The notes under the pieces are model-generated. The model made no database searches, was not told the origin of the DNA, and saw only the letters and a program-made list of their open reading frames with translations. This document shows positions 12,108 to 59,927 of a DNA stretch of 64,000 nucleotides, piece by piece. Source of the stretch: Azonexaceae bacterium (lineage in GTDB: Bacteria > Pseudomonadota > Gammaproteobacteria > Burkholderiales > Rhodocyclaceae); assembly GCA_013335535.1 (NCBI GenBank), contig JAAXVL010000010.1, forward strand, positions 78,992-142,991, read 5' to 3'. The number at the start of each line of letters is the position of its first letter. Within the stretch, counting starts at the first letter, position 1. Made by a program: the position numbers and the translations under genes.

Positions 12108-12148
12108 GATTTCGTTTTTGGCCAAATTTTCCGGTCGACCGTGGAAGG
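12108..12148 (+). repeat. dispersed 40-bp repeat, copy 3
   Basis: gatttcgtttttggccaaattttccggtcgaccgtggaagg. Confidence 0.8.
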
Positions 12149-12212
12149 CGACCTCGATCCGATTATCGGCAAAGCGCGCGCGACCGACGACGAGGCAATC
12201 GCCAAATGAGCC

Positions 12213-16623: not shown

Positions 16624-17532
16624 TCAGACCTGCGCGCACTCGGCCATCCAGCCCAGCGCCTTGACGCAGGCGCGGGCCATGGCCGGTGACAGGGCATCGT
16701 GGCCGGCGCTGGCCACCGGCACCCAGGCCGCTTCCGGCCAGGCCCGATGCAGGGTTTCGGCCGCAATCGGCGGGCAAACCGGGTCGGCCATGCCTTGAAC
16801 GATGACGGCCGGCAGATGGTGGATGCGGGCAATACCGGCCAGTAGCTGGCCGGGCACGAGAAAGCAGTCGCGCGTCAGGTAATGCATCTGGATGCGCGCC
16901 CGGGCCAGTTGCATCGCATCGAGCGTGCCGTCGAGCGGTGCCTTGCCGACCAGTTGGCGCTGATAGTTGAGCCAGAGCCGCGCCGTCTGCTGCGCCGTTT
17001 CCGGCTCATCGCCGAGGATGCGCCGGGCAAACGCCGTCAGCGGATGCGCCTGCTCGGCTGGCGGCAGCAAGCCGCCCAGACCACGCGCGTAGGCGACGAT
17101 TTCGTCGTGCGAGCCGAGAAAGATGCCGTGCATGATCAGGCCATACACGCTTTCGGGATAAATCTGGGCATAGGCCAGCGCCAAAAGGCTGCCCCACGAA
17201 CCGCCGAAAACGATCCAGCCGGGTATGCCGAGCGCCTCGCGCACGTAGTCGAGATCGGCCACCAGATCGAGCGTCGTGTTCGCCCCCAGCTCGCCACTGG
17301 GCAGGCTGCGCCCGGCGCCGCGCTGGTCGATCAGGACAACGCGAAAAATGGCGGGGTCGAACAGCCGGCGATGTTCGGTCAGGCAGCCACCACCCGGCCC
17401 GCCGTGCAGGAACAACACAGGAATCCCGTCAACCGGGCCGCATTCCTCGACGTGCAGGATATGCCCGTCGCCGACGGCCATCTGCCGGACGCAGCGCGGC
17501 CGGCACTCGGGAAAGAGATGATCGTCTGACAT
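16624..17532 (-). CDS. pip: proline iminopeptidase (alpha/beta hydrolase)
   Basis: LFLHGGPGGG, DQRGAGRS and GGSWGS nucleophile motifs. The start overlaps the response-regulator stop. Confidence 0.85.
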   Translation of the reverse strand: MSDDHLFPECRPRCVRQMAVGDGHILHVEECGPVDGIPVLFLHGGPGGGCLTEHRRLFDPAIFRVVLIDQRGAGRSLPSGELGANTTLDLVADLDYVREALGIPGWIVFGGSWGSLLALAYAQIYPESVYGLIMHGIFLGSHDEIVAYARGLGGLLPPAEQAHPLTAFARRILGDEPETAQQTARLWLNYQRQLVGKAPLDGTLDAMQLARARIQMHYLTRDCFLVPGQLLAGIARIHHLPAVIVQGMADPVCPPIAAETLHRAWPEAAWVPVASAGHDALSPAMARACVKALGWMAECAQV

Positions 17533-18179
17533 CAGGCCTCGATCAGTCCGTTGCGGACGGCGACCAGCGTCAGCTCGGCGGCGTTCTGCACGTTGAGCTT
17601 CTGCTTGATGTGATACAGATGGGTGCCGACCGTGCTCGGGCTCAGGCAGAAATCCTCGGCCACGTCATTGACTGAGCGGCCTTCGGCCAGCTTCATGAAG
17701 ACAGCCAGTTCCTTCTCGGTCAGCGTGTCGACCGGGCTGCTCGAGCCGGAAAGCTGGGCCAGCGCGACAGCCTGTGCCAGTTCCGGGTCGAGGTAACGAC
17801 GGTCACTGGCCACCTGGCCGACAGCGCGCAGAAATTCCTCCGGCGATGCCCGCTTGCACAGGTAACCACGGGCACCGAGGCGCAGGGCGCGCACCGGCAC
17901 GACGTCGTCGTTGTGTGCCGAAAGCATGAGCACCTTCGCCTTCGCCTCCCAGGCGATGAGCCGTTCGAGCGCGGCGAGACCGCCAATGCCGGGCATCGAG
18001 ACGTCCATCACGACGACATCCGGGTTGGTTTCGGCGTAGAGGCGGACAGCGCTTTCGCCGTTTTCGGCTTCGCCGACCACCGTCGCGCCAGCTCCTTCGA
18101 GCAGGCAACGGAAGCCAAGGCGAACCATCGCGTGGTCGTCGGCGAGCAGGACGCGCTTGCCGTGCAGTGCGTTGTTCAT
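17532..18179 (-). CDS. NarL/LuxR-family response regulator (REC plus HTH)
   Basis: VLLADDH...DVVVMDVSMPG receiver region and a C-terminal LTEKELAVFMKLAEGRSVNDVAEDFCLSPSTVGTHLYHIKQKL. Resembles ExaE/PedR2-type regulators found next to PQQ-ADH genes. Confidence 0.9.
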   Translation of the reverse strand: MNNALHGKRVLLADDHAMVRLGFRCLLEGAGATVVGEAENGESAVRLYAETNPDVVVMDVSMPGIGGLAALERLIAWEAKAKVLMLSAHNDDVVPVRALRLGARGYLCKRASPEEFLRAVGQVASDRRYLDPELAQAVALAQLSGSSSPVDTLTEKELAVFMKLAEGRSVNDVAEDFCLSPSTVGTHLYHIKQKLNVQNAAELTLVAVRNGLIEA

Positions 18180-19585
18180 GCGAATTCCTCCGGTGAAGGT
18201 TGAAGCGCTGCATCCGGCAGGCGGGCAAAAATGCGGAAGCCGCCGCCGGCCGGTTGTTCGAATTGAAGATCGCCACCCAGCGCGGCAATGCGCTCGGCCA
18301 TGCCCGCCAGGCCAAGGCCGCAGCCGGGTTGCGTCGAAGGCTGGCCGGAACGGCCGCGACCGTTGTCGGACAGCGTCAGCTGCAGGCAGCCAGCCACACG
18401 GCTGATGGCCAGATCGACCTGCGAAGCGTGGGCGTGGCGCACGACATTGGTCAGGCCTTCCTGAACGATACGGACGACGGCCATGGCCAGATCGTCGGCG
18501 ACGGGCTGGGGGCCGATGGCGAGCTGGCTGTTGACGGTGATGTCCGGGTGCTGCACCTGCCAGCCGGCGAGCTGGCGCTCGAGCCTCACGGACAGACTGT
18601 TGCCGGCCACCGGGCGCAGGCGATGCAGTATATTGCGCACGCCGTCCTGCATTTCGCCGGTGACAGCGACGATGCCCTGAGCCGGAATGTGCAGCGATGG
18701 CGCGTCGCCGGTACGCTGGACGATGGCGCCGGCCAGCGCGCGGACAGCGGTGATGCCCTGAGCCAGTTCATCGTGCAGTTCGCGGGCGATGACCCGGCGC
18801 TCCTCTTCGAGGCGATCATGCATCTGGCGGTCGACTTCGCGGGCGCTTTCGAGGCGGACGTTGTCGTCCACCGCCTCGCCCAGCCGGTCGGCCATGCCGT
18901 TGAAGGCGCGCGAAATGCGGCCGAGTTCGGGCGTCGCGAAGACCGGCAGACGGGTGTCGAAACGGCCGCGCGCCGTGCGGTCAAGCGCGCGCATGATCTG
19001 GGCAAGCGGGCGCAGGGCGCGCCCCAGCGCCGTGCGCGTCGCCACGAACAGCAGGCAAAGCAGGGCCAGCGCCCAACCCGCCATGGCCGCCAGATCGTCC
19101 CAGGCGTCGAGAATGGCGCGCGAATCATCAGGATGCAAAGTCAATGTATAGCCCTCGACAGCCAGCGTGCGCGCCGGCAATTCAGTAGCGAGCAGCCCGG
19201 CAAACCAGCCCGGCACGGTGCGCCCGGCCTTGTAGCTCGGACCGGGCGAGCGGTAGATGGATGCACCGGCCGCCGAGCGGATTTCCAGCTCGTTGGCGCG
19301 GACCCGGCCGATGGCGCGCACCACGCCGAGCAGGCGCTCGCCGCGCACAATCGGCGGCACGTCCTGGATCTCACCGATGACGGCCTTGAGCCATTGCTCG
19401 GAGACCCGCGTCGCCGCCTCGACCTCCTCGTGAATGGCATTGCGCGTGGCGTGCAGCCAGAAGCCGGCCATGACGACGAGCAGGCTGGCGGCTAGGGCGG
19501 TGAGGACGAGGCCGACACGGGTGTGGAGGCTCAAGCGCCGGCTTCCACGGTCAACCGGAAAAAATGGCCGAAATTTGAATTTCAT
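18176..19585 (-). CDS. NarX-type sensor histidine kinase (TM, HAMP, HisKA_3, HATPase_c)
   Basis: H-box ARELHDELAQ plus C-terminal ATPase motifs (DNGRG, GCGLGLAGM). ATG 19585 overlaps the receptor stop as ATGA, like every other junction in this operon, and then includes repeat copy 5 in frame. The alternative is TTG 19534. Confidence 0.8.
   Translation of the reverse strand: MKFKFRPFFPVDRGSRRLSLHTRVGLVLTALAASLLVVMAGFWLHATRNAIHEEVEAATRVSEQWLKAVIGEIQDVPPIVRGERLLGVVRAIGRVRANELEIRSAAGASIYRSPGPSYKAGRTVPGWFAGLLATELPARTLAVEGYTLTLHPDDSRAILDAWDDLAAMAGWALALLCLLFVATRTALGRALRPLAQIMRALDRTARGRFDTRLPVFATPELGRISRAFNGMADRLGEAVDDNVRLESAREVDRQMHDRLEEERRVIARELHDELAQGITAVRALAGAIVQRTGDAPSLHIPAQGIVAVTGEMQDGVRNILHRLRPVAGNSLSVRLERQLAGWQVQHPDITVNSQLAIGPQPVADDLAMAVVRIVQEGLTNVVRHAHASQVDLAISRVAGCLQLTLSDNGRGRSGQPSTQPGCGLGLAGMAERIAALGGDLQFEQPAGGGFRIFARLPDAALQPSPEEFA
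19543..19583 (-). repeat. dispersed 40-bp repeat, copy 5
   Basis: ttccacggtcaaccggaaaaaatggccgaaatttgaatttc; lies between the receptor stop and the first TM helix of the kinase. Confidence 0.85.
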
Positions 19586-21909
19586 TTTTCGCCTGCACCG
19601 CCAAAGGCGTAGCGCACGCCAATCCACGCAGCCCGCGGGGCGCCCGGAGCGACAAAGGTTTCCCGATGCCAGTTGTCAGGGTTGGTCTGAAAACCACCAA
19701 CGAAGGGATTCTCGGCCAGTGCGCCGGCTGTGGCGTAGCGCTTGTCGAAGACGTTGTTGACCTTGGCGAACATCTGCCAACCGCCGCCCAGCTTGGCCTC
19801 GGCATTGAGGTTGAGGATGGCGTAGCCGGGAATGCGCCCCGGGCCCTCGAAGGTACGCGTGTTGGCATTGACGTCGGTAAAGGTGCCACTCTGGTGCTGG
19901 TTGTTCTCGTTGCCGCGCACGTACTGGCCGGAAAAGGCCTGCACGTCGCCGCCGACGCGCAGCCAGTCGGTGGCGCGCCAGGCCAGGCCGAACTTGAGGC
20001 TGTGCTGCGGCAGGCCGGGAATGCGGTTGCCCTTTTTCACGAGAATCTCATCATCCTGGCCAGCCCCCGTGCATTCGGCAGTCGTGCCGCGTGTGCTGTT
20101 GTTGGCACCGAGCAGACAGGCATCGGAACGGAACGTGGCCTGCAGCCAGGTGTAGTTGGCGTACCAGTCGACGCGATGGAGGTTGCCGTTGAGGCCAAGT
20201 TCGAGGCCCTGGCGCAGGGTCTTGCCGTAGTTGGTGAAGTAACCGGCGCTGGTCGACGTCCCGACGAACAGGATGTCGTCGCTGCTCATGGTGCGGAACA
20301 GGCCGGCGTTCCAGTTCGCGTCCCCCAACAACTCACCGGCCAGCTTGCCGCGCAGGCCAGCTTCGAGCGTGCGGGCGACGACCTGCTTGAGGTAGGGGTC
20401 GGACGCCATCGAATTGGGCAGGGTGCACGGGTTGGCCGGATCGGCGCAGCCCAGTTCGATTGGCGTCGGCACACGGTTGCCCTGGCTGAAGCCGGCATAG
20501 GCGTTGAGCGCCGGGACGATCTGCCAGCTCAGGCCAAGCGCCGGGTTGAGCTTGCGGTAATGGTGGTCGCCGTCGAGATTGGGCGCCGTGCGGGTAAGCT
20601 CGTCGAAGGTCATGACGTGGCTCAGGTTGTAGCGCGCCGAGCCGGTCAGGTGCAGGTTGTGCAACAGCGACCAGGTGTCGGTGACGAACAGGCTGGCGGT
20701 GCTGGTCTTGCCGTGGATCTGGTTCTCGACGGCCAGCGCCTGCAAGTTGCTGATGCCGCGGCTGTCGTCAAGTTCGCCGAGCTCCTGCGTCTGCTGAAAA
20801 TGAATGCGTGACTGATCGTAGGAGGCGCCAACCGCCAGCTGATGCTGCTGGCCGCTGAAATTCCACTGGCCGGCGACGCCCGTGCCGTGCTGCGAAGTCC
20901 TGGTCCGGTTATTCGCGCCGCTTGGCGTCGTCGGATCGCTTGCCCAATCGTTCTCGTAGTCGTCGTTCATGTCGCCGTTCAGCGTTCGCGTCTTGGTCCG
21001 GCGGTGATAGACGCTGCCGCTCAGGCTCTGCGTGTCGCTGAGCCAGAGTTTGCCATTGAGGGCGAGCTGGGTGAGGTCATTACGCGTCTCGTCGGGGTGT
21101 GTGAAGATATTTTCACGACGCTGGGCGAGCAGCGACTGCGGCACGAGGCCGTTGCCGATCAGGCGGCTGCGCGCCTTGGTCAGCGTCAGGTCGGCCTCGC
21201 CGGCAGCATTGCGGAAGGAGAGTTTGCCAAAAAACTGTTTGACGTCGGACGGTGAATGATCGCGCCAGCCGTCTTCGCGGAACCAGTCGCCGGCACCGTA
21301 CCAGCCGATGGTGCCGTTGTTGCCGCCGTATTCAAATTCGGTGTTGGTTCGGTTGAAACTGCCGCCCGAAACCTCGAGCTTGCCGCCCGGGTGCGAGAAG
21401 CCGCTCTTGGTCCGCATGGCCAGCGCGCCGCCCAGAGTGTTGAGGCCAAAGGCCGGGTTGGAACCGGGAACGAGGTCGATGCCGGCAATGGCCGAATGGG
21501 GTATCAGATCCCAGTTCACCGTGTCACCGAAGGGCTCGTTGATCCGCACGCCATCGACGTAGACCGACAGCCCCTGCGCCGTGCCGAGCAGCGGCGACGC
21601 GGTGAAACCACGGTAATTGAGGTCGACCTGATAAGGATTGCCCTGAATTTCATTGACCGTGACCGAGGGCATCTGGCGCACCATCTGTTCGGCGATGTTG
21701 AGGCTTTCGATTTCTTCTAGGCGCTGATCGTCGAAGGACTGGACATTGGCCGGCAGATGCAGGCGCGGCACACCGATGCCGGAGAGCGGCGTGGTGCCGA
21801 CGACTTCGACGGTCGCCGTGGTGACCACCGATTCGGCGGCGAAGGCCGGCGCGAAGGCGGCGGACAGGGCGATGGCGATCAGCGAGCGGGCTGGGGTTTG
21901 TCTCTTCAC
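19582..21909 (-). CDS. TonB-dependent outer-membrane receptor
   Basis: GTG start overlapping the tonB stop. Signal peptide, plug motifs (VEVVGTTPL, NYRGF, GVRINEPFGD) and a large beta-barrel with terminal aromatic-rich strands. Confidence 0.85.
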   Translation of the reverse strand: MKRQTPARSLIAIALSAAFAPAFAAESVVTTATVEVVGTTPLSGIGVPRLHLPANVQSFDDQRLEEIESLNIAEQMVRQMPSVTVNEIQGNPYQVDLNYRGFTASPLLGTAQGLSVYVDGVRINEPFGDTVNWDLIPHSAIAGIDLVPGSNPAFGLNTLGGALAMRTKSGFSHPGGKLEVSGGSFNRTNTEFEYGGNNGTIGWYGAGDWFREDGWRDHSPSDVKQFFGKLSFRNAAGEADLTLTKARSRLIGNGLVPQSLLAQRRENIFTHPDETRNDLTQLALNGKLWLSDTQSLSGSVYHRRTKTRTLNGDMNDDYENDWASDPTTPSGANNRTRTSQHGTGVAGQWNFSGQQHQLAVGASYDQSRIHFQQTQELGELDDSRGISNLQALAVENQIHGKTSTASLFVTDTWSLLHNLHLTGSARYNLSHVMTFDELTRTAPNLDGDHHYRKLNPALGLSWQIVPALNAYAGFSQGNRVPTPIELGCADPANPCTLPNSMASDPYLKQVVARTLEAGLRGKLAGELLGDANWNAGLFRTMSSDDILFVGTSTSAGYFTNYGKTLRQGLELGLNGNLHRVDWYANYTWLQATFRSDACLLGANNSTRGTTAECTGAGQDDEILVKKGNRIPGLPQHSLKFGLAWRATDWLRVGGDVQAFSGQYVRGNENNQHQSGTFTDVNANTRTFEGPGRIPGYAILNLNAEAKLGGGWQMFAKVNNVFDKRYATAGALAENPFVGGFQTNPDNWHRETFVAPGAPRAAWIGVRYAFGGAGEK

Positions 21910-22646
21910 GTTGTTTTTTTAAGTTTGTAATTGATCGGTACGACGACTTGAATTTCGTTGCTGTCGAGCGACTCGGGCAGCGGCGGCAAGCCGGCCAGCG
22001 CTTCGAGCATGGCCAGCGCGTGCTGGTCGAGCACCTCGAAACCGCTCGAACGGTCGAGGGCGATGCCGAGCAGGTTGCCCTTGCGGGCGACTTTCAGGCG
22101 CAGGCGAACCTCGCCTTCCCAGCCGCGCATGGCGGCGATGCGCGGGTATTCCTGATGGCGGGCGAGCAGTTCGCCGAGGCGCTGGCGGTAGCTGTCGAGG
22201 ATTTCGCTTTGCGGGCGCTGCGGGGCGACGGCGGGCGCCGGGCGGGCTGTTTCGGCAACGGGTGCCGCGGGTGCCGCGGGTGCCGATGCTAGCTTGTCGG
22301 AAGACGTTGCGACTGTCGACGACGCCACGGGTGCCGGCACATTGGCCGGCCCGGCAGTCTGCGTCACGCGCGGAGCCGGCCGCTCCGTGCGAATGGCTTC
22401 CTGCCGGGCCTTCTGGGGGACGGTTGCCGGCGCAGGGGCGGCAGCGGCAACGGGTCCGGATTCGGTAACGGCGACCAGGCGGATTGACGCCAGGATGGGC
22501 GGCAGGCTGATCGGGCCGTTCTTGCGTTGCCACGAAGTTACGGCGAACAGCGTGGCGTGGAGCAGGATGGACAAGGCCAGAATTGCCCAGAATTTCCGGT
22601 TGACCGTGGGAACCGCCGGCATATCGATGAGGGCCGCCGCCATCAT
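21906..22646 (-). CDS. tonB: TonB energy-transducer protein
   Basis: N-terminal TM helix with the SxxxH motif (ALSILLHA), a Pro/Ala-rich spacer, and a C-terminal TonB domain (YPRIAAMRGWEGEVRLRLKV...). ATGA overlap with the upstream MBL gene. Confidence 0.8.
   Translation of the reverse strand: MMAAALIDMPAVPTVNRKFWAILALSILLHATLFAVTSWQRKNGPISLPPILASIRLVAVTESGPVAAAAPAPATVPQKARQEAIRTERPAPRVTQTAGPANVPAPVASSTVATSSDKLASAPAAPAAPVAETARPAPAVAPQRPQSEILDSYRQRLGELLARHQEYPRIAAMRGWEGEVRLRLKVARKGNLLGIALDRSSGFEVLDQHALAMLEALAGLPPLPESLDSNEIQVVVPINYKLKKTT
22581..22612 (+). repeat. dispersed repeat, right-half copy inside the tonB coding region
   Basis: aattgcccagaatttccggttgaccgtgggaa; read on the minus strand it encodes TVNRKFWAI of TonB. 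Confidence 0.65.
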
Positions 22647-23581
22647 GGTTTTGCCCCCAATGCTTCCTGCTCGGCCGCCGGAAAAAGATGGCCAACCGAA
22701 CGGCGATATTCGCTGGCGGCGACCGGCAGGCGAGCAAACTCGGCGGGCAGCGGGCGAGCCAGCACGTCGTTCATGTCCAGCCCGGCTTTCGCCGCGTCGC
22801 GCATGGCGGCGGTCAGCCAGGTCAGCCAGGCGCGGGTCTGGCGAATCGGCGCGGCATCGCTGGTCGGCGCGCCGTGGCCGGGCAGCAACGCCTTGAAGCC
22901 GGCTTCGCGGGTCACCCCTTCGAGCTGGTCGAGCGCCTTGAGCCAGTGGGCGACGTCCGCGTGCGGCGTGGTCGGGGCGCGGCCGTTGAAGGCGAGATCG
23001 CCGGCGAAGACGACGCCGCTCGTTTCATCGACGATGACCAGGTCGGCGCCGGTATGGCCGTCGAGCCCGACGAGGCGCAGGCTCCGACCAGCCACCTCGA
23101 GGCGGCCGGCATTCAGCGTCTTGCCGGGCAGCTGAACTTCGGTGCCCTTCATCCAGTCGCCGCTCATGCGGAAGAGGTTCTCGGCGAAGGCGTTGCCATC
23201 GGCGGCGATGCCGTTACGCGTCTCGGCCAGCGCAGCGATGGGCACATCGGCAAAAGCCTGGTTGCCGAGAAAATGGTCGGGATGGTGGTGGGTGTTGATG
23301 ACCAGCGCGATGGGCTTGTTCGTCACGGCGGCAATGGCCCGGCGCATCTGCTGGCCGTAGCGCAGCGACGGGCCGCTGTCGATGACGATGACGCCCTGCG
23401 CAGCGACGATGAAGGCGGTGTTGACGATATTGCCGCCGTTGTCGGTGGTGAAATCCTCGGTCTTGCCGATGAAGGCGTAGACGTCCCTGGCGATCTCGAC
23501 CGGGCTCAGGCGATAGTCGAAATCGACCGCCCCGAGCTGGCCGGCGACGAGCATGAGTAACGCGCAGAGCAGGCGTTTCAC
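22643..23581 (-). CDS. periplasmic metallo-beta-lactamase-fold hydrolase (recalled family: quinoprotein relay system zinc metallohydrolase)
   Basis: HHHPDH zinc motif and a signal peptide. The family name is from memory of TIGRFAM-style PQQ-linked families and needs an HMM check. Confidence 0.7.
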   Translation of the reverse strand: MKRLLCALLMLVAGQLGAVDFDYRLSPVEIARDVYAFIGKTEDFTTDNGGNIVNTAFIVAAQGVIVIDSGPSLRYGQQMRRAIAAVTNKPIALVINTHHHPDHFLGNQAFADVPIAALAETRNGIAADGNAFAENLFRMSGDWMKGTEVQLPGKTLNAGRLEVAGRSLRLVGLDGHTGADLVIVDETSGVVFAGDLAFNGRAPTTPHADVAHWLKALDQLEGVTREAGFKALLPGHGAPTSDAAPIRQTRAWLTWLTAAMRDAAKAGLDMNDVLARPLPAEFARLPVAASEYRRSVGHLFPAAEQEALGAKP

Positions 23582-24348
23582 TGCGCAATCCTCGCTGTGA
23601 AGGCATTGCCGTTGTTGTCGCGGCCGCTCGCTTCGACCGGGCCGTCGGCGCTGGTCCGTTGCAGGGTGAATACCGGATTTTCGCTGACCGGCTCATAGGT
23701 CTGGACGCGCATCAGACGCTTGCCAGCGGCGTCGGCGAAGTTGATTTCCTCGAGAAAGAAGGCTGGCGTGCCGGCAACCAGGCCGGTATCCATCGGATGC
23801 ACGATGCGCATGCGCAGCCGGCCGGCGTTCGGGCCTTCGCTCCACTGGCGGCCGCTCACTTCGTTGAGGCGCTGCTGCCACTCCTTCGAACCACCGGCCG
23901 CCGACGGGGCCGTGCAGCCGCCGCCCACGGTGTTCACCCAGGTGCCGCCGACATGCCAGACGCCATCGGCCGTGCGCACGGCAGCGCGGACCGGCGTCGA
24001 TTGCTGCAGCTTGACGCGAAAGCCGAGGAAAGCCGGGGCATCTTCAGGAAAGAAGCGCAGCACCTGCACAATCGGATTGAAATCGGCAAAGACGACGACT
24101 TCGACAACCCCGGGCAGCGCCGTTGCATCGACGGTGACCGGCACCTGCATCGGATTTTCAGCCGTCGACGGGGCAACCACCTTGACGCGCGGGTCGAACA
24201 ACACCGGCGCGCCGGCCAGGAAAGCTTTCTGCATTTCCGACCAGCGCGCCGAGGCGAGCGGATCGCCGTTCTCGCGCAAGGCGGCAGCTTCGGCCGGGGG
24301 CATCAATGCCGCCAGGGCAATCGCCGCAATGGTCAGTGGGTATTTCAT
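23578..24348 (-). CDS. SoxYZ-like fusion protein (recalled family: quinoprotein dehydrogenase-associated SoxYZ-like carrier)
   Basis: Signal peptide and an internal GGGC motif (VNTVGGGCTAPS) resembling the SoxY carrier cysteine. The C-terminal half is SoxZ-like by composition. Confidence 0.55.
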   Translation of the reverse strand: MKYPLTIAAIALAALMPPAEAAALRENGDPLASARWSEMQKAFLAGAPVLFDPRVKVVAPSTAENPMQVPVTVDATALPGVVEVVVFADFNPIVQVLRFFPEDAPAFLGFRVKLQQSTPVRAAVRTADGVWHVGGTWVNTVGGGCTAPSAAGGSKEWQQRLNEVSGRQWSEGPNAGRLRMRIVHPMDTGLVAGTPAFFLEEINFADAAGKRLMRVQTYEPVSENPVFTLQRTSADGPVEASGRDNNGNAFTARIAQ

Positions 24349-24394
24349 CTTGTCTCACTCCTTTTGCCCTGTGGGCTCTTTGCCGAGAACCGTT

Positions 24395-24410
24395 TGCAAA
24401 GCGCGTGCCA
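24395..24410 (-). promoter_or_regulatory. sigma-54 (-24/-12) promoter for the 7-gene minus-strand operon
   Basis: Minus strand reads TTGGCACGCGCTTTGCA (TGGCAC-N5-TTGCA), about 50 nt upstream of ATG 24348. Confidence 0.65.
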
Positions 24411-24506
24411 AGAACCGCCGGTTTTGCCGAATCGCTGATCTGGCCAGCAAAGGCGCTGTGGCGCCGCACACTGTCACAGCACCTGATCAACCGGTGTGTG
24501 CAACTT

Positions 24507-24513
24507 TGGAGCA
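24507..24513. promoter_or_regulatory. TGGAGCA half-site (candidate enhancer/UAS element) between the divergent sigma-54 promoters
   Basis: The same heptamer forms a perfect palindrome at 26718-26738 and recurs at 35973-35979, each about 100-190 bp upstream of a sigma-54 promoter. Confidence 0.3.
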
Positions 24514-24623
24514 GGTGGTGACAATTGGAACAGCGCTCCTGCCAACTGCCCGGCCCGGCAAAAAATCCGCGAAATGCCGGCTTCAGCCCCGCCAACAGGA
24601 GCGCCGGGGGTTTCGGCCCGGCT

Positions 24624-24639
24624 TGGCACAGCCCTTGCA
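24624..24639 (+). promoter_or_regulatory. sigma-54 promoter upstream of the PQQ alcohol dehydrogenase gene
   Basis: TGGCACAGCCCTTGCA, a perfect TGGCAC-N5-TTGCA, about 130 nt upstream of ATG 24770. Confidence 0.7.
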
Positions 24640-24769
24640 GATTGTGTCCCCGCCAGCGAGCCGGTTCAGGGAATGGAGGTGGCTCGCCAGCATGTCATTC
24701 CACGCAGGCAGACCGTGTTCAGCACGGTTTTTCTGCGGAGGAACCATCGGATAATCAAGGAGACAATCC

Positions 24770-26551
24770 ATGCATAGTCATACCCCTTTCAAGCGGAGAG
24801 TCGTTACCCTCGCGCTTCTGACGGCAGCGGCATTTGCCGGCAGCCCGGCCAGCGCCGTCGTCACTGACGCCGACATCCTCAACGACGCCACGACCAAGGG
24901 CGACGTCGTCAGCTTCGGCCTCGGCACCCAGGGTCAGCGCTTCAGCCCGTCCACCCAGATCAACGCCAAGACGGTGAAGAACCTGGTCCCGGCCTGGTCG
25001 ATGTCCTTCGGCGGCGAGAAGCAGCGCGGCCAGGAATCGCAACCGGTCATCCACAACGGCAAGATGTTCGTCACCGCTTCCTACAGCCGCCTGTTCGCCA
25101 TCGACGCGAAGACCGGCAAGAAGCTGTGGAAGTACGAGCACCGCCTACCGGACGGCATCATGCCGTGCTGTGACGTGATCAACCGCGGCGCTGCCCTGTA
25201 CGACAACCTCGTCATCTTCGCGACGCTGGATGCCCAGCTCGTCGCCATGAACCAGGACACCGGCAAGGTCGTCTGGAAGGAAAAGCTCGGTGACTACGCT
25301 GCCGGCTACTCCGCTTCCGCTGCCCCGATCATTGCCAAGGGCAAGCTGATCACCGGTATCTCCGGTGGCGAATTCGGCGCCGTCGGCCGTATCGACGCCC
25401 GCGATCCGAAGACCGGCAAGCTGCTGTGGACGCGTCCGACCGTCGAAGGCCACATGGGCTATCGTTTCGACGCCGATGGCAAGCAGATCGAAAACGGCAT
25501 CTCCGGCACGACCAACGCCACCTGGACCGGCGACCTCTGGCAAACCGGCGGCGCAGCCACCTGGAACGGCGCCACCTACGATCCGGAAACCAACCTGATC
25601 TTCGCCGGCACCGGCAACCCGGCCCCGTGGAACAGCCACCTGCGTCCGGGCGACAACCTGTTCTCGTCCTCCACCGTGGCCATCGACGCCGACACCGGCA
25701 AGATCGCCTGGCACTACCAGAACACCCCGCACGACGGCTGGGACTTTGACGGCGTGAACGAATTCGTTTCCTTCGATTACAAGGATCCGAAGACGGGCAA
25801 GATCATCAAGGCCGGCGGCAAGGCCGACCGTAACGGTTTCTTCTTCGTGAACGACCGCACCAACGGCAAACTGCTCAACGCCTTCCCGTTCGTCAAGAAG
25901 ATCACCTGGGCTAGCGGCATCAACCTGGAAACGGGCCGTCCGAACTACATCGAAGAAGGCCGTCCGGGTGACCCGACCGCCAGCACCGATGGCAAGAAGG
26001 GCAAGGTCGTCTTCTCGGCTCCGTCCTTCCTCGGCGGCAAGAACCAGCAGCAGATGGCCTACTCGCCGCAGACCGGCCTGTTCTACGTGCCGGCCAACGA
26101 GTGGTCGATGGACATCTGGAATGAGCCGGTTTCGTACAAGAAGGGCGCGGCCTACCTGGGCGCCGGCTTCACCATCAAAGCGCTCAACGACGACCATATC
26201 GGCGTCCTGCGCGCTGTCGATCCGGCCACCGGCAAGATCGTCTGGGAAAACAAGAACTACGCCCCGCTCTGGGGTGGCGTCCTGACGACCGCTGGCGGCC
26301 TGATTTTCTACGGCACCCCGGAAGGCTTCCTGAAGGGTGTTGATGCCAAGACCGGCAAGGAACTGTGGTCCTTCAACGTCGGTACCGGCATCGTTGCACC
26401 GCCGGTCAGCTGGGAACAGGATGGCGAGCAGATGATCGCCGTGACGACTGGCTGGGGCGGCGCTGTTCCGCTCTGGGGCGGCGATGTGGCCAAGCGCGTG
26501 AACTTCCTCGAACAGGGTGGTTCCGTCTGGGTCTTCAAGCTGCACAAGTAA
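24770..26551 (+). CDS. PQQ-dependent alcohol dehydrogenase, methanol/ethanol family (type I quinoprotein), lanthanide-type active-site signature
   Basis: Signal peptide, vicinal-disulfide motif MPCCDV, W-motif propeller repeats, and the catalytic region [13 protein letters not shown] with D325 and D327. AAGGAGA RBS. Confidence 0.9.
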
Positions 26552-29221: not shown

Positions 29222-29260
29222 GATTTGAAATTTGGGCCAAATTTCCGGTTGACCGTGGAA
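29222..29260 (+). repeat. dispersed 40-bp repeat, copy 8
   Basis: gatttgaaatttgggccaaatttccggttgaccgtggaa. Confidence 0.85.
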
Positions 29261-29372
29261 AAGGCATCGCGGTCCCGGAAATGGATTCCGGCGAATTGAC
29301 GAAGAAAATCCCGCGCTGCTTTGCCGGGCGGGATTAACAGCCGATTGGCCTATCCCGGAAGAAAGGCCGGAG

Positions 29373-58248: not shown

Positions 58249-58629
58249 CTAGAGGCCGAGCAGCGGGCTACGCGTCAGTGCCACACTGACGATGTAGCCG
58301 TAGGCCAGCACGGCCAACCCGAGGTAGCGCGTCCGGATTGACTTGGTTCGGCCGCGCTTGAGCGCCATCATGCCGAACAAAATGTAGGCGAGCAGGCCGA
58401 AGAGCTTGGCGGTCAGCCAGCCGTTCACAAACGGGTACTGGCCGCTCAGCCAGGCCATGGTCAGCGCGCTGCCGAGCAGCAGCGTATCGACGATGTGGGG
58501 CAGGATGCGCGTCAGGCGGTGCTGGCGCAGCGGCGATTCGCGCAGCATCCACCAGCCACGCAGGCCAAAACCCAGGCCACTGAGCACGACGCAGGTAACG
58601 TGCAGATGTTTGAGGGCGAGATAGCTCAT
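58249..58629 (-). CDS. SirB2-family small membrane protein
   Basis: Start at ATG 58629 overlapping the upstream stop (ATGA). MSYLALKHLHVTCVVLSGLGFGLRG is typical of SirB2/YchQ-like proteins. Confidence 0.65.
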   Translation of the reverse strand: MSYLALKHLHVTCVVLSGLGFGLRGWWMLRESPLRQHRLTRILPHIVDTLLLGSALTMAWLSGQYPFVNGWLTAKLFGLLAYILFGMMALKRGRTKSIRTRYLGLAVLAYGYIVSVALTRSPLLGL

Positions 58630-59927
58630 GGCGCCGTCAGCTTGGCGGCGAGTTTGGCCTCGATGTCTGCCTGATGGTGACGATAGCGCCCGATGGCACC
58701 GGCCAGATTCCACCACAGCCAGCCATTGGCCACGGCAAAAGCCAGCCCGGCTGGTCGGGCCAGCCAGGCCGGGATGACGATGGCGGCGAGAAGCAGAGCC
58801 AGGGCGGCGGCGTAAGCCAGCAACTGCCGGTGCATGGCGGGTTCGGCGAGAATCTTGTTCATGGCCGGGGCCGGCACCTTGGCCTGGCCGCAAGTCTGCA
58901 GGTGCGTCCAGGATAAAAAGGGAACGATCTTGTAGAGCATGCCGGTGATGAAGGGGATGAATCCGCCGGCAATGAGCAAAACACCGAACATGAGGGTCCA
59001 GCCATCGATGTCAGCCAGCGCCGGCCGGATTGCCACGGTCAACAGGAAAAACAGCCCAAAAATGGAAAGTATCAAACCGAGCTGCCAGTAGCGGTAGGTG
59101 GCATCCGGCCGCGCCCGCCGCCGCTGCCCCTGCAGGCGCAGGGTCAGCCCGGCGAAGGCCATGCCGGCCAATGCCGCGCCAAGCTGGCCGAGGCGGACGA
59201 GCAGTGACCAGTCGCCGAGCACGCCGATGCTCCACAGCAGCAGCATGAGCAGCATGAAGAGCGGGAACCACCAGCTGGCGCGCGCCGGGTAGCCGGGCGT
59301 CAACTGGAACATCGGCACCACGACGTAGGCCATGGCCGCCAGCAGGACACCGGCCCAGCCGCCCAGCCCCCAACCGGCGTGCAGGTCAGCCAGCGCCATG
59401 AGGGGCAATGGCCAGCCATAGGCCAGCGCCAGTGCCAGAACGACGCCGAGCCCGACGACACCGGACAAGCCGAACAGCGCGACCTTGATGCCGCGGATGG
59501 TCGGGCTGGTTGTCGGGACGGCGATCAGGGCGCTGACGGTTACCGCCAGGAAGAACAGCATGCTCAGACCGAGCGTCAGGGCCGCGATGCCGAGCAGCGC
59601 AGGTGCCCCGAAAAAGAACCCGGCAGCCAGCAGGAGCGCCCCGACCGTGAGGCCGACATGGACGACGCGGGCTACGGCCACCGGCCGTTTCAGGCTAGCA
59701 CCGGCGACCACTGGCAGAATCTGGATGAGCGCGCCGAGCATGACCTGCAGCATGAAGCCGATGGTGATCAGATGCGTCGCCGCCAGGGCGCCGGGCGTCC
59801 ACCGCGAGGCGAAGATATCCGGCCCTTCGAAGGCGACGAGCAGGCCGGCCAGTGCTGCAAAGAGCGGCGCGGTCAGAAAGAAGCGCAGCGGCGCGGCGAA
59901 GGGCGGTGCGTTTTCGAAGGCCAGCAT
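58626..59927 (-). CDS. polytopic inner-membrane protein of unknown function (about 12 TM)
   Basis: 433 aa, almost entirely hydrophobic helices. No motif I can assign. Confidence 0.7.
   Translation of the reverse strand: MLAFENAPPFAAPLRFFLTAPLFAALAGLLVAFEGPDIFASRWTPGALAATHLITIGFMLQVMLGALIQILPVVAGASLKRPVAVARVVHVGLTVGALLLAAGFFFGAPALLGIAALTLGLSMLFFLAVTVSALIAVPTTSPTIRGIKVALFGLSGVVGLGVVLALALAYGWPLPLMALADLHAGWGLGGWAGVLLAAMAYVVVPMFQLTPGYPARASWWFPLFMLLMLLLWSIGVLGDWSLLVRLGQLGAALAGMAFAGLTLRLQGQRRRARPDATYRYWQLGLILSIFGLFFLLTVAIRPALADIDGWTLMFGVLLIAGGFIPFITGMLYKIVPFLSWTHLQTCGQAKVPAPAMNKILAEPAMHRQLLAYAAALALLLAAIVIPAWLARPAGLAFAVANGWLWWNLAGAIGRYRHHQADIEAKLAAKLTAP
59030..59073 (-). repeat. dispersed repeat, degenerate copy inside the membrane-protein coding region
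   Basis: ttgccacggtcaacaggaaaaacagcccaaaaatggaaagtatc; encodes LSIFGLFFLLTVAI within a predicted TM helix. Confidence 0.6.

Follow-up and report, generated by a model that had tools for sequence, protein, structure and literature searches.

Two genes of a single operon in a 64,000-nt stretch of an Azonexaceae bacterium genome (contig JAAXVL010000010.1, positions 78,992 to 142,991; hereafter the window) carry evidently translated copies of a dispersed 41-bp DNA motif, one at the 5′ end of the gene for a sensor histidine kinase and the other within the gene for TonB. On comparative evidence from related genomes, we give a probability of roughly 0.75 to the reading in which both sites are genuine, translated coding instances of the motif, the DNA word being what is maintained and the proteins tolerating it, and in which sequence already present in TonB was overwritten in place. 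This would be a clean case in which a force acting at the DNA level prevails over codon usage and leaves its mark on the N-termini of both proteins. An earlier, sequence-only reading of the window had compared the two copies with in-frame insertions of Rickettsia palindromic elements (RPEs); the comparison of orthologues would settle the start of the kinase, corrects the RPE-like insertion idea, and supplies evidence against insertion for a motif family without a description in the literature that we searched.

The motif and its distribution

The consensus of the 41-nt unit, taken from a logo of 138 unique copies, reads gaNT.CCACGGTCAACCGGAAA-(A/T)3-n-GGCCAAA(A/T)TtGAAAT, with the core at logo positions 0-16, A/T tracts at 14-19 and 25-30, a GGCC block at 21-24 and GAAAT at 31-35. 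The edges of the unit are sharp, its length is fixed, and the two A/T tracts lie about 11 nt apart. With up to three mismatches allowed, the 64 kb contain 12 occurrences of the 17-nt core CCACGGTCAACCGGAAA, where 0.18 would be expected, and none of 100 shuffles reached 12. We also trained a profile hidden Markov model (HMM) on 119 copies from other genomes only and searched the window with it in nhmmer, which gave 12 significant matches, 4 in plus and 8 in minus orientation:

19540-19580, plus strand: motif copy in the 5′ end of the kinase gene, full length (profile 2-42), 43.2 bits, E 1.5e-12; exact core at 19545-19561
22582-22614, minus strand: motif copy in the TonB gene (profile 2-34 of 44), 31.5 bits, E 6.6e-9; exact core at 22593-22609
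59028-59067, plus strand: third coding-region copy, in the gene for an uncharacterised membrane protein, 28.5 bits
3884-3925, plus strand: intergenic copy, 47.5 bits
5822-5861, minus strand: intergenic copy, 48.3 bits
12108-12149, minus strand: intergenic copy in the divergent region between an FKBP gene and a receptor gene, 42.8 bits
12236-12278, minus strand: intergenic copy, 37.3 bits
26623-26662, minus strand: intergenic copy, 44.1 bits
29222-29261, minus strand: intergenic copy, 41.1 bits
36061-36099, minus strand: intergenic copy, 42.8 bits
41042-41082, plus strand: intergenic copy, 50.7 bits
53172-53212, minus strand: intergenic copy, 44.3 bits

Both orientations are present, irrespective of gene direction. 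In a scan that took one genome for each species, at least 102 stretches were returned; among the matches listed, nearly all came from Azonexus, Ferribacterium, Dechloromonas and metagenome-assembled genomes (MAGs) of Rhodocyclaceae, and those outside the clade were single chance matches. Density within the Azonexaceae clade (Azonexus, Ferribacterium, Dechloromonas) is about 1 copy per 5 kb, and two of the orthologous loci described below, L103 and L104, hold 4 copies per 11.4 kb. The motif was not found in a plasmid collection and is rare in viral contigs (8 stretches, mostly single). No Rfam family matched in the window at gathering thresholds, and neither the core sequence nor uptake sequences in Dechloromonas turned up in literature searches. 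Stop-to-stop spans of open reading frames (ORFs) failed to classify copies in high-GC DNA and were replaced by a heuristic based on GC content at third codon positions (GC3), still a rough one, by which 125 of 155 classified copies (~81%) fall between genes, about 20 inside them, 7 at 5′ ends and 3 at 3′ ends.

The consensus and three window copies fold into a hairpin no better than shuffled sequences do (z from -0.2 to +0.95), and the logo of 138 unique copies shows no inverted ends. Membership of the repetitive extragenic palindromes and bacterial interspersed mosaic elements (REP/BIME) or of the miniature inverted-repeat transposable elements (MITEs) was considered and rejected, the unit being neither palindromic nor bounded by terminal inverted repeats. 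A sigma-70 -35 box with UP element, a sigma-54 promoter and a site for integration host factor (IHF) were rejected by eye, as there is no conserved partner element and orientation is unlinked to genes. In about 28% of copies TTT takes the place of AAA after the core, which yields a perfect palindrome, TTTTGGCCAAAA or AATTTTGGCCAAAATT, centred on GGCC (as at 29222-29261 of the window and in L010); such copies, palindromic over logo positions 17-30, could mark a dimeric binding site or two sub-families.

Translation of the kinase copy

The features needed here are the kinase gene, the receptor gene before it and the two candidate starts:

18176-19585, minus strand: sensor histidine kinase, 469 aa, UhpB/NarX-like, with HAMP, HisKA_3 and HATPase_c domains
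19582-21909, minus strand: TonB-dependent receptor, 775 aa, C-terminus ...RYAFGGAGEK
19583-19585, minus strand: favoured kinase start, ATG in an ATGA overlap with the TGA stop of the TonB-dependent receptor
19534-19536, minus strand: alternative kinase start, TTG (the codon that opens LSLHTR), preceded by GGAAG at a distance of 7 nt; not favoured

Started at the ATG (19585-19583), the kinase opens with MKFKFRPFFPVDRGSRRLSLHTR... and then enters its first transmembrane (TM) helix, TM1. Residues 2-15 are the reverse strand of the motif, read as the peptide KFKFRPFFPVDRG, and belong to the cytoplasmic tail before TM1. We gathered orthologous operons through exact-protein look-ups and a metagenome scan with TonB alignment, and in each located the receptor stop and the codon that opens the conserved LSLHTR. 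The 30 distinct receptor-kinase junctions fall into 12 classes of stop-to-L length (8, 17, 23, 26, 32, 41, 50, 53, 65, 77, 110 and 287 nt), and in all 30 the distance is 2 mod 3, with the frame open to LSLHTR throughout, a tail of 96 codons included. An in-frame ATG or GTG overlaps the receptor stop in 23 of the 30 junctions and in 16 of the 18 whose tails have at least 13 codons, and the remaining 7 start 5 or 11 nt past it without a change of frame. Counting only the seven classes with at least 41 nt, a non-coding spacer would give such agreement with a chance of about (1/3)^6. A TTG at the L codon is present in four junctions only (the window, L120, L104 and L113); the other orthologues have CTC, CTG, CTT, TTT, TTC, GTC or TGG there, and L103, L111, L128 and L138 have no further in-frame start before TM1. 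Given the constant phase, the overlapping in-frame starts and the restriction of the TTG to four junctions, the motif is evidently translated in the kinase, and the comparative evidence favours the stop-overlapping ATG over the TTG as the start of a product that includes the tail; a second kinase product could be made from the TTG in addition.

If the kinase started solely at the TTG at 19536, the motif would lie in a 47-nt untranslated spacer and be open in frame by coincidence. The GGAAG lying 7 nt upstream, the annotation of one close orthologue (P0130) from MSLHTR, and the rare codons of the motif segment all agree with such a start; however, most motif-bearing orthologues have neither the TTG nor another in-frame start before TM1, the tails, whose lengths are always a multiple of 3 apart, are free of stops even over 96 codons, and GGAAG is a flank of the motif that occurs also where no start follows (L103). 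We consider a TTG start very improbable. That the repeat is in frame as residues 2-15 from the ATG at 19585 had been stated by the sequence-only reading, and is borne out by the 43.2-bit match and the 30 junctions; the TTG at 19534 had also been named there as the sole alternative, but a GTG at 19627, upstream, opens the frame as well, and from it the motif would still be translated.

The length of the tail and its sequence vary. Motif-free orthologues have 3-11 residues before LSLHTR (MIKRR, MPGRHQ, MMRQLLPSRER), and motif-bearing ones mostly 13-26 and up to 96, the lengths varying in many 3-nt steps. Since 41 nt is not a multiple of 3, the unit alone cannot be an in-frame insert; an insertion at the kinase site is neither shown nor excluded by these comparisons. 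Tail peptides differ freely (MTFQIWPISQVDR, MTMPVWPLSSTNR and MIMRLLPDILVDG) in kinases that are 77-84% identical overall, and GC3 of the motif codons is 0.44, against about 0.8 for genes. At the DNA level, the 45-nt motif segment is 78-82% identical to that of the window in L120, L103 and L138, whose kinases have 66-85% protein identity, and 42-56% identical in L105, L108, L109 and L121 (kinases 69-81%), in which it has drifted to ordinary codon usage; identity at four-fold sites is saturated by codon bias at 0.57-0.70 and provides no usable clock. As the motif is kept against codon bias and the kinase peptide is free to vary, it would be the DNA word that is maintained, and the alignments indicate that some lineages have retained this word and others have given it up, without regard to the kinase protein. 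A tree of 117 kinases places the motif-bearing tails in two large groups with decayed forms intermixed, and requires at least 9 changes of motif label, which fits one old origin followed by losses as well as it fits several gains.

The 96-codon tail is that of L119, in which the motif, about 290 nt before LSLHTR, is followed by a 237-nt in-frame G-rich insert (GGVGG, GEGRGGDG and EGGGA repeats). The insert has the appearance of a further element, distinct from the motif, that the tail also tolerates.

The TonB copy

The copy in TonB lies next to the motif of its TM helix:

21906-22646, minus strand: TonB, 246 aa; its ATG overlaps the stop of the upstream metallohydrolase gene
22557-22571, minus strand: SxxxH (S26-I-L-L-H30) in the transmembrane helix of TonB, shortly after the motif

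TonB residues 13-20, PTVNRKFW, are encoded by CCCACGGTCAACCGGAAATTCTGG, which matches the core at 17/17 positions; the motif strand is the gene strand, and the copy is read as (V)PTVNRKFWAI. The sequence-only reading was right that the element is translated in frame here, but had assigned the match to its right half, whereas it spans the core, the first A/T tract and the GGCC block, or three quarters of the unit. Among 34 orthologues S26 and H30 never vary and R17 and F19 hardly do; the motif falls behind the conserved N-terminus and ahead of the SxxxH helix. An alignment of 120 TonB orthologues (55-100% identity) runs ungapped through the motif, L105 differing by a single codon upstream of it. 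Close orthologues read PTVNRKFWAIL, and distant ones AVDRKFW, AVDRRFW, VERRF and similar; E. coli TonB has LPRRFPW at the corresponding place. Because motif-free orthologues carry homologous residues without a gap, the TonB residues are ancestral, and the copy there is not an insertion. Alignment with orthologues had been proposed earlier as the way to recognise lineage-specific insertions, and its outcome is divided: it speaks against an insertion in TonB, where motif-free orthologues have AVDRRFW or AVDRKFW, and also against a chance match there, while at the kinase the tail is 5-12 codons longer.

In the underlying DNA of TonB orthologues, the core match is 10/17 where the family is not alive (GCG GTC GAC CGG CGT; L106-L108), 15/17 in L126, L129 and L138, and 17/17 in the window, L103, L104, L115 and L118, continuing in L104 through TTTTGG. 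Under the codon usage of the window, the probability of the six codons given PTVNRK is 1.6e-3. It could be argued that protein constraint, or chance, produced the match and that it is no copy of the family at all, for V-D/N-R-R/K-F-W is ancestral and the ancestral DNA already agrees at 10/17. Against this stand the E-value of 6.6e-9 to a profile trained elsewhere, the reach of the match beyond the core, the codon probability just given, and the restriction of high TonB-site scores almost entirely to lineages that keep the kinase copy or others. A by-product or chance origin is thereby left extremely improbable, and the comparison indicates that the DNA match is derived, being neither a side effect of the residues nor chance.

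Co-variation and decay

Across loci in which both sites could be scored, the TonB and kinase sites both reach at least 18 bits in 6, neither does so in 18, and the two are discordant in 2 (Fisher p ~2e-4, a hand calculation over lineages that are not independent). Where TonB is motif-like, additional intact copies tend to occur at the locus; the remaining loci have none in about 10 kb. The clearest decay is that of L105 (Dechloromonas sp. HYN0024, CP031842.1), in which four of four sites, namely the kinase tail, TonB and two in the FKBP/receptor intergenic region, are decayed or partly deleted, and no intact core occurs within 11.4 kb. The intergenic copy at 12108-12149 is intact in the window and in L104, and L105 has a decayed form of the same length. 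The L105 lineage appears, from these sites, to have lost whatever maintains the family.

Copies in other coding regions

The third coding copy in the window sits in a TM helix of the membrane protein (gene 58626-59927, minus strand), where it is read as SIFGLFFLLTVAI. An alignment of 120 orthologues of this protein is ungapped at the motif, and at equal length their match to the consensus is graded, from 16/40 in L192 through 26/40 in L191 and 30/40 in L190 and the window to 32/40 in L189. The L192 product, which is named for D. aromatica RCB in UniRef, has 76% identity with the protein of the window. Between L191 and the window, all 6 of 6 differences point toward the consensus, and they are clustered. 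In a TrpC gene (L044, 6789-7601), a one-mismatch core with a repeat-like tail falls exactly over the conserved IAEIKKASPSKG; the motif there uses the rare codons GGT CAA CCG GGA ATA and aligns without a gap to the sequence of the P. aeruginosa TrpC structure (6y88).

LysR regulators in relatives carry copies at ARHGQPE.PA.L. In the LysR-type genes of L056, L057, L098 (1454-2338) and L101 the exact 17-mer is in frame as ARHGQPE, the bases that follow, AAAATCCGGCCGAATTGCAAAA, resemble the rest of the unit, and the site corresponds to the usual P.YL..HG.P..P.DL region. Read on its reverse strand, the motif also forms the n-region and part of the h-region of several signal peptides, for example MKHFIFACFFGLTVGAAQA and MNFGRFFRSTVGIGLAAAFLVAL (L017, L036, L050 and L009/L093). 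In a motif-bearing Azonexus MAG, L089 1838-4162 encodes ComEC/Rec2 (TIGR00361, 358 bits against a cut-off of 190), a widespread protein, and this gene itself has a copy, read as FEFDVNFRLTVATE near residue 101.

Insertion of a mobile element

The RPE-like insertion proposed by the sequence-only reading is one form of a broader alternative, in which an RPE- or MITE-like mobile element was inserted in frame in both genes. The sharp boundaries and fixed length of the unit are what such an element would show, as are the kinase tail exceeding that of motif-free orthologues and the small gaps at copies in two further genes, MurU-like transferase and HisC. Yet there is no gap at the motif in TonB, in the membrane protein or in TrpC; the 41-nt length is not divisible by 3; hairpin and inverted ends are missing; plasmids are free of the motif and viral contigs seldom have it; and orthologues of equal length match the consensus to graded degrees. 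Insertion in both genes is therefore quite improbable, and the RPE-like form of the idea fails as a classification, and largely as a mechanism, on the ungapped TonB and the non-palindromic unit, no residues having been added at three of the four sites tested most closely.

What may maintain the motif

We propose that a force acting across the genome preserves the word, or brings it into being, at any place where the protein can bear the encoded peptide, that is, in N-terminal tails, signal peptides, TM helices and loops. In TonB, substitutions would have written the motif over a compatible AVDRRFW, at a place where basic residues and F-W are needed before the SxxxH helix. Where the force lapses, all copies would decay together and their codons would return to normal usage. 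The mechanism that we favour, tentatively and at somewhat less than even odds, is molecular drive of the DNA-uptake-signal type, in which word-bearing fragments are preferentially taken up and recombined. In its specific form, with the motif as an undescribed DNA uptake signal of free-living Azonexaceae, the kinase and TonB copies as products of uptake drive, and a lapse of that drive in such lineages as HYN0024, the proposal is a shade more tentative still. If it is true, the motif would represent a third independent system of self-DNA recognition and the first in environmental Rhodocyclales, where cultured strains exist. For annotation, the analysis implies that the short N-terminal extensions and the signal peptides which these repeats encode are genuine and ought to be left in place.

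Several observations weigh against parts of this account. The window kinase tail, at 17 codons against 5-11, is 5-12 codons longer than in motif-free orthologues, which allows an insertion at that site, and the MurU-like transferase and HisC copies show small gaps (4-9 aa) relative to distant PDB homologues. The co-variation and conservation tests use lineages that are phylogenetically non-independent. With regard to uptake, the intergenic share of about 81% of 155 copies compares with 35-66% for known uptake sequences, and the density of about 1 per 5 kb with roughly 1 per kb for uptake signal sequences (USS) and DNA uptake sequences (DUS). The unit is long, information-rich and hard to build by point mutation from scratch, and a literature search found no report of natural competence in these genera.

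The motif might instead be the site of an abundant chromosomal DNA-binding protein, under ordinary selection at each site, with coding copies wherever the protein sequence allowed them. A strongly conserved core in a long, information-rich unit would suit such a protein, as would the palindrome TTTTGGCCAAAA formed by about 28% of copies, the mostly intergenic placement and a density below that of USS. It accords less well with copies that occur in all intergenic contexts and, despite the rare codons this requires, within TM helices, signal peptides and the cores of enzymes, and in both orientations unlinked to gene direction. The joint decay seen in some lineages also counts on this side, even though it fits the loss of one system under either explanation. 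On balance we regard a binding site of this kind as somewhat unlikely.

Another possibility is short-patch ectopic gene conversion, or templated repair, from genomic copies onto sequence that was already partly similar. The clustering of the differences between L191 and the window in the membrane protein gene, 6/6 of them toward the consensus, is what conversion would leave behind, and partial similarity did pre-exist in TonB, LysR and TrpC. The pre-existing homology, however, amounts to 10-12 nt, which is short for recombination, and the intermediates (15/17 in TonB; 26/40 and 30/40 in the membrane protein) fit stepwise change. Conversion seems to us unlikely as the source of the coding copies.

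Comparison with known systems

The closest analogue of the motif would be the uptake signal sequences of coding regions. Redfield and colleagues described USS as a strong core with two A/T tracts one helical turn apart, restricted to clades and present or decayed in a coordinated way, and a gap test like the one applied here showed that USS are not insertions (PMC1626085); the pattern of the present motif agrees with that description. The Pasteurellaceae USS (Hin-type AAGTGCGGT, Apl-type ACAAGCGGT) resemble the present motif in having a core with two A/T-rich segments to one side of it, spaced by about one helical turn, and in being clade-specific, present in both orientations and ungapped in their coding copies (PMC1626085). 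Coding uptake sequences constrain the proteome and use poorer codons, and tolerated peptides with suboptimal codons are a further likeness between the USS and the copies described here (PMC2817400). In contrast to the Pasteurellaceae USS, the present unit is longer (41 bp), has an extra GGCC block and occurs at a density about 5-fold lower, about 81% of its copies are intergenic as opposed to 35-51%, and its kinase copy lies in a lengthened tail. In Haemophilus, Actinobacillus and Neisseria, 34-65% of uptake sequences lie within ORFs (PMC2817400). The statement in the earlier reading that in-frame dispersed repeats, known from Rickettsia, would be unusual in a betaproteobacterium overlooks USS and DUS (PMC2817400).

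The Neisseria DUS (GCCGTCTGAA and its dialects) is likewise a short genome-wide word of a betaproteobacterial family, with a family-level “dialect” distribution. DUS often form inverted pairs that act as terminators, whereas the present copies are single and form no hairpin. About a third of DUS copies are in ORFs (PMC2817400), and DUS, unlike the present motif, have no flanking A/T motifs (PMC1626085). RPEs are similar in being dispersed repeats that reside in frame in functional genes and are translated. The RPE is a palindrome, roughly 100-150 bp long, whose insertion gives the protein an additional segment, whereas the present unit has 41 bp, is non-palindromic and leaves TonB, the membrane protein and TrpC without extra residues. 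HIP1 (GCGATCGC) of cyanobacteria, an over-represented 8-bp palindrome of coding and non-coding DNA, arises in place; the present motif shares its over-representation in both kinds of DNA but is asymmetric and 41 bp long.

Operon setting

Both coding copies, in the kinase and in TonB, belong to a minus-strand operon of seven genes that occupies 16624-26551 of the window, neighbour included. Genes other than those given above are:

minus strand: quinoprotein-dehydrogenase-associated SoxYZ-like carrier (TIGR04557)
minus strand: quinoprotein relay system zinc metallohydrolase 1 (TIGR04558), directly upstream of TonB
minus strand, after the kinase: LuxR-type response regulator
minus strand, after the kinase: prolyl-aminopeptidase-like hydrolase

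A divergent gene for a dehydrogenase of the methanol/ethanol family dependent on pyrroloquinoline quinone (PQQ) adjoins the operon. According to the ORF coordinates, the operon junctions overlap by 1-4 nt (23578-23581, 22643-22646, 21906-21909, 19582-19585, 18176-18179 and 17532), in agreement with the earlier statement that every junction does so. The nearest relatives of the operon proteins are found in Ferribacterium, Dechloromonas and Azonexus. A look-up of the Ferribacterium limneticum kinase (P0124) gave no record, and the 469-aa kinase product is identical to a public protein record (P0122).

The operon can be viewed as a “quinoprotein relay system” with its own TonB, receptor and two-component pair. 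The receptor resembles PqqU weakly (108 bits against a cut-off of 1200). Its end, near 19585-19602 of the window, reads ...RYAFGGAGEK, with ...F-G-G-K in relatives and GGGEEK in L103, and these receptors all run a few residues beyond the aromatic residue that usually closes a TonB-dependent barrel.

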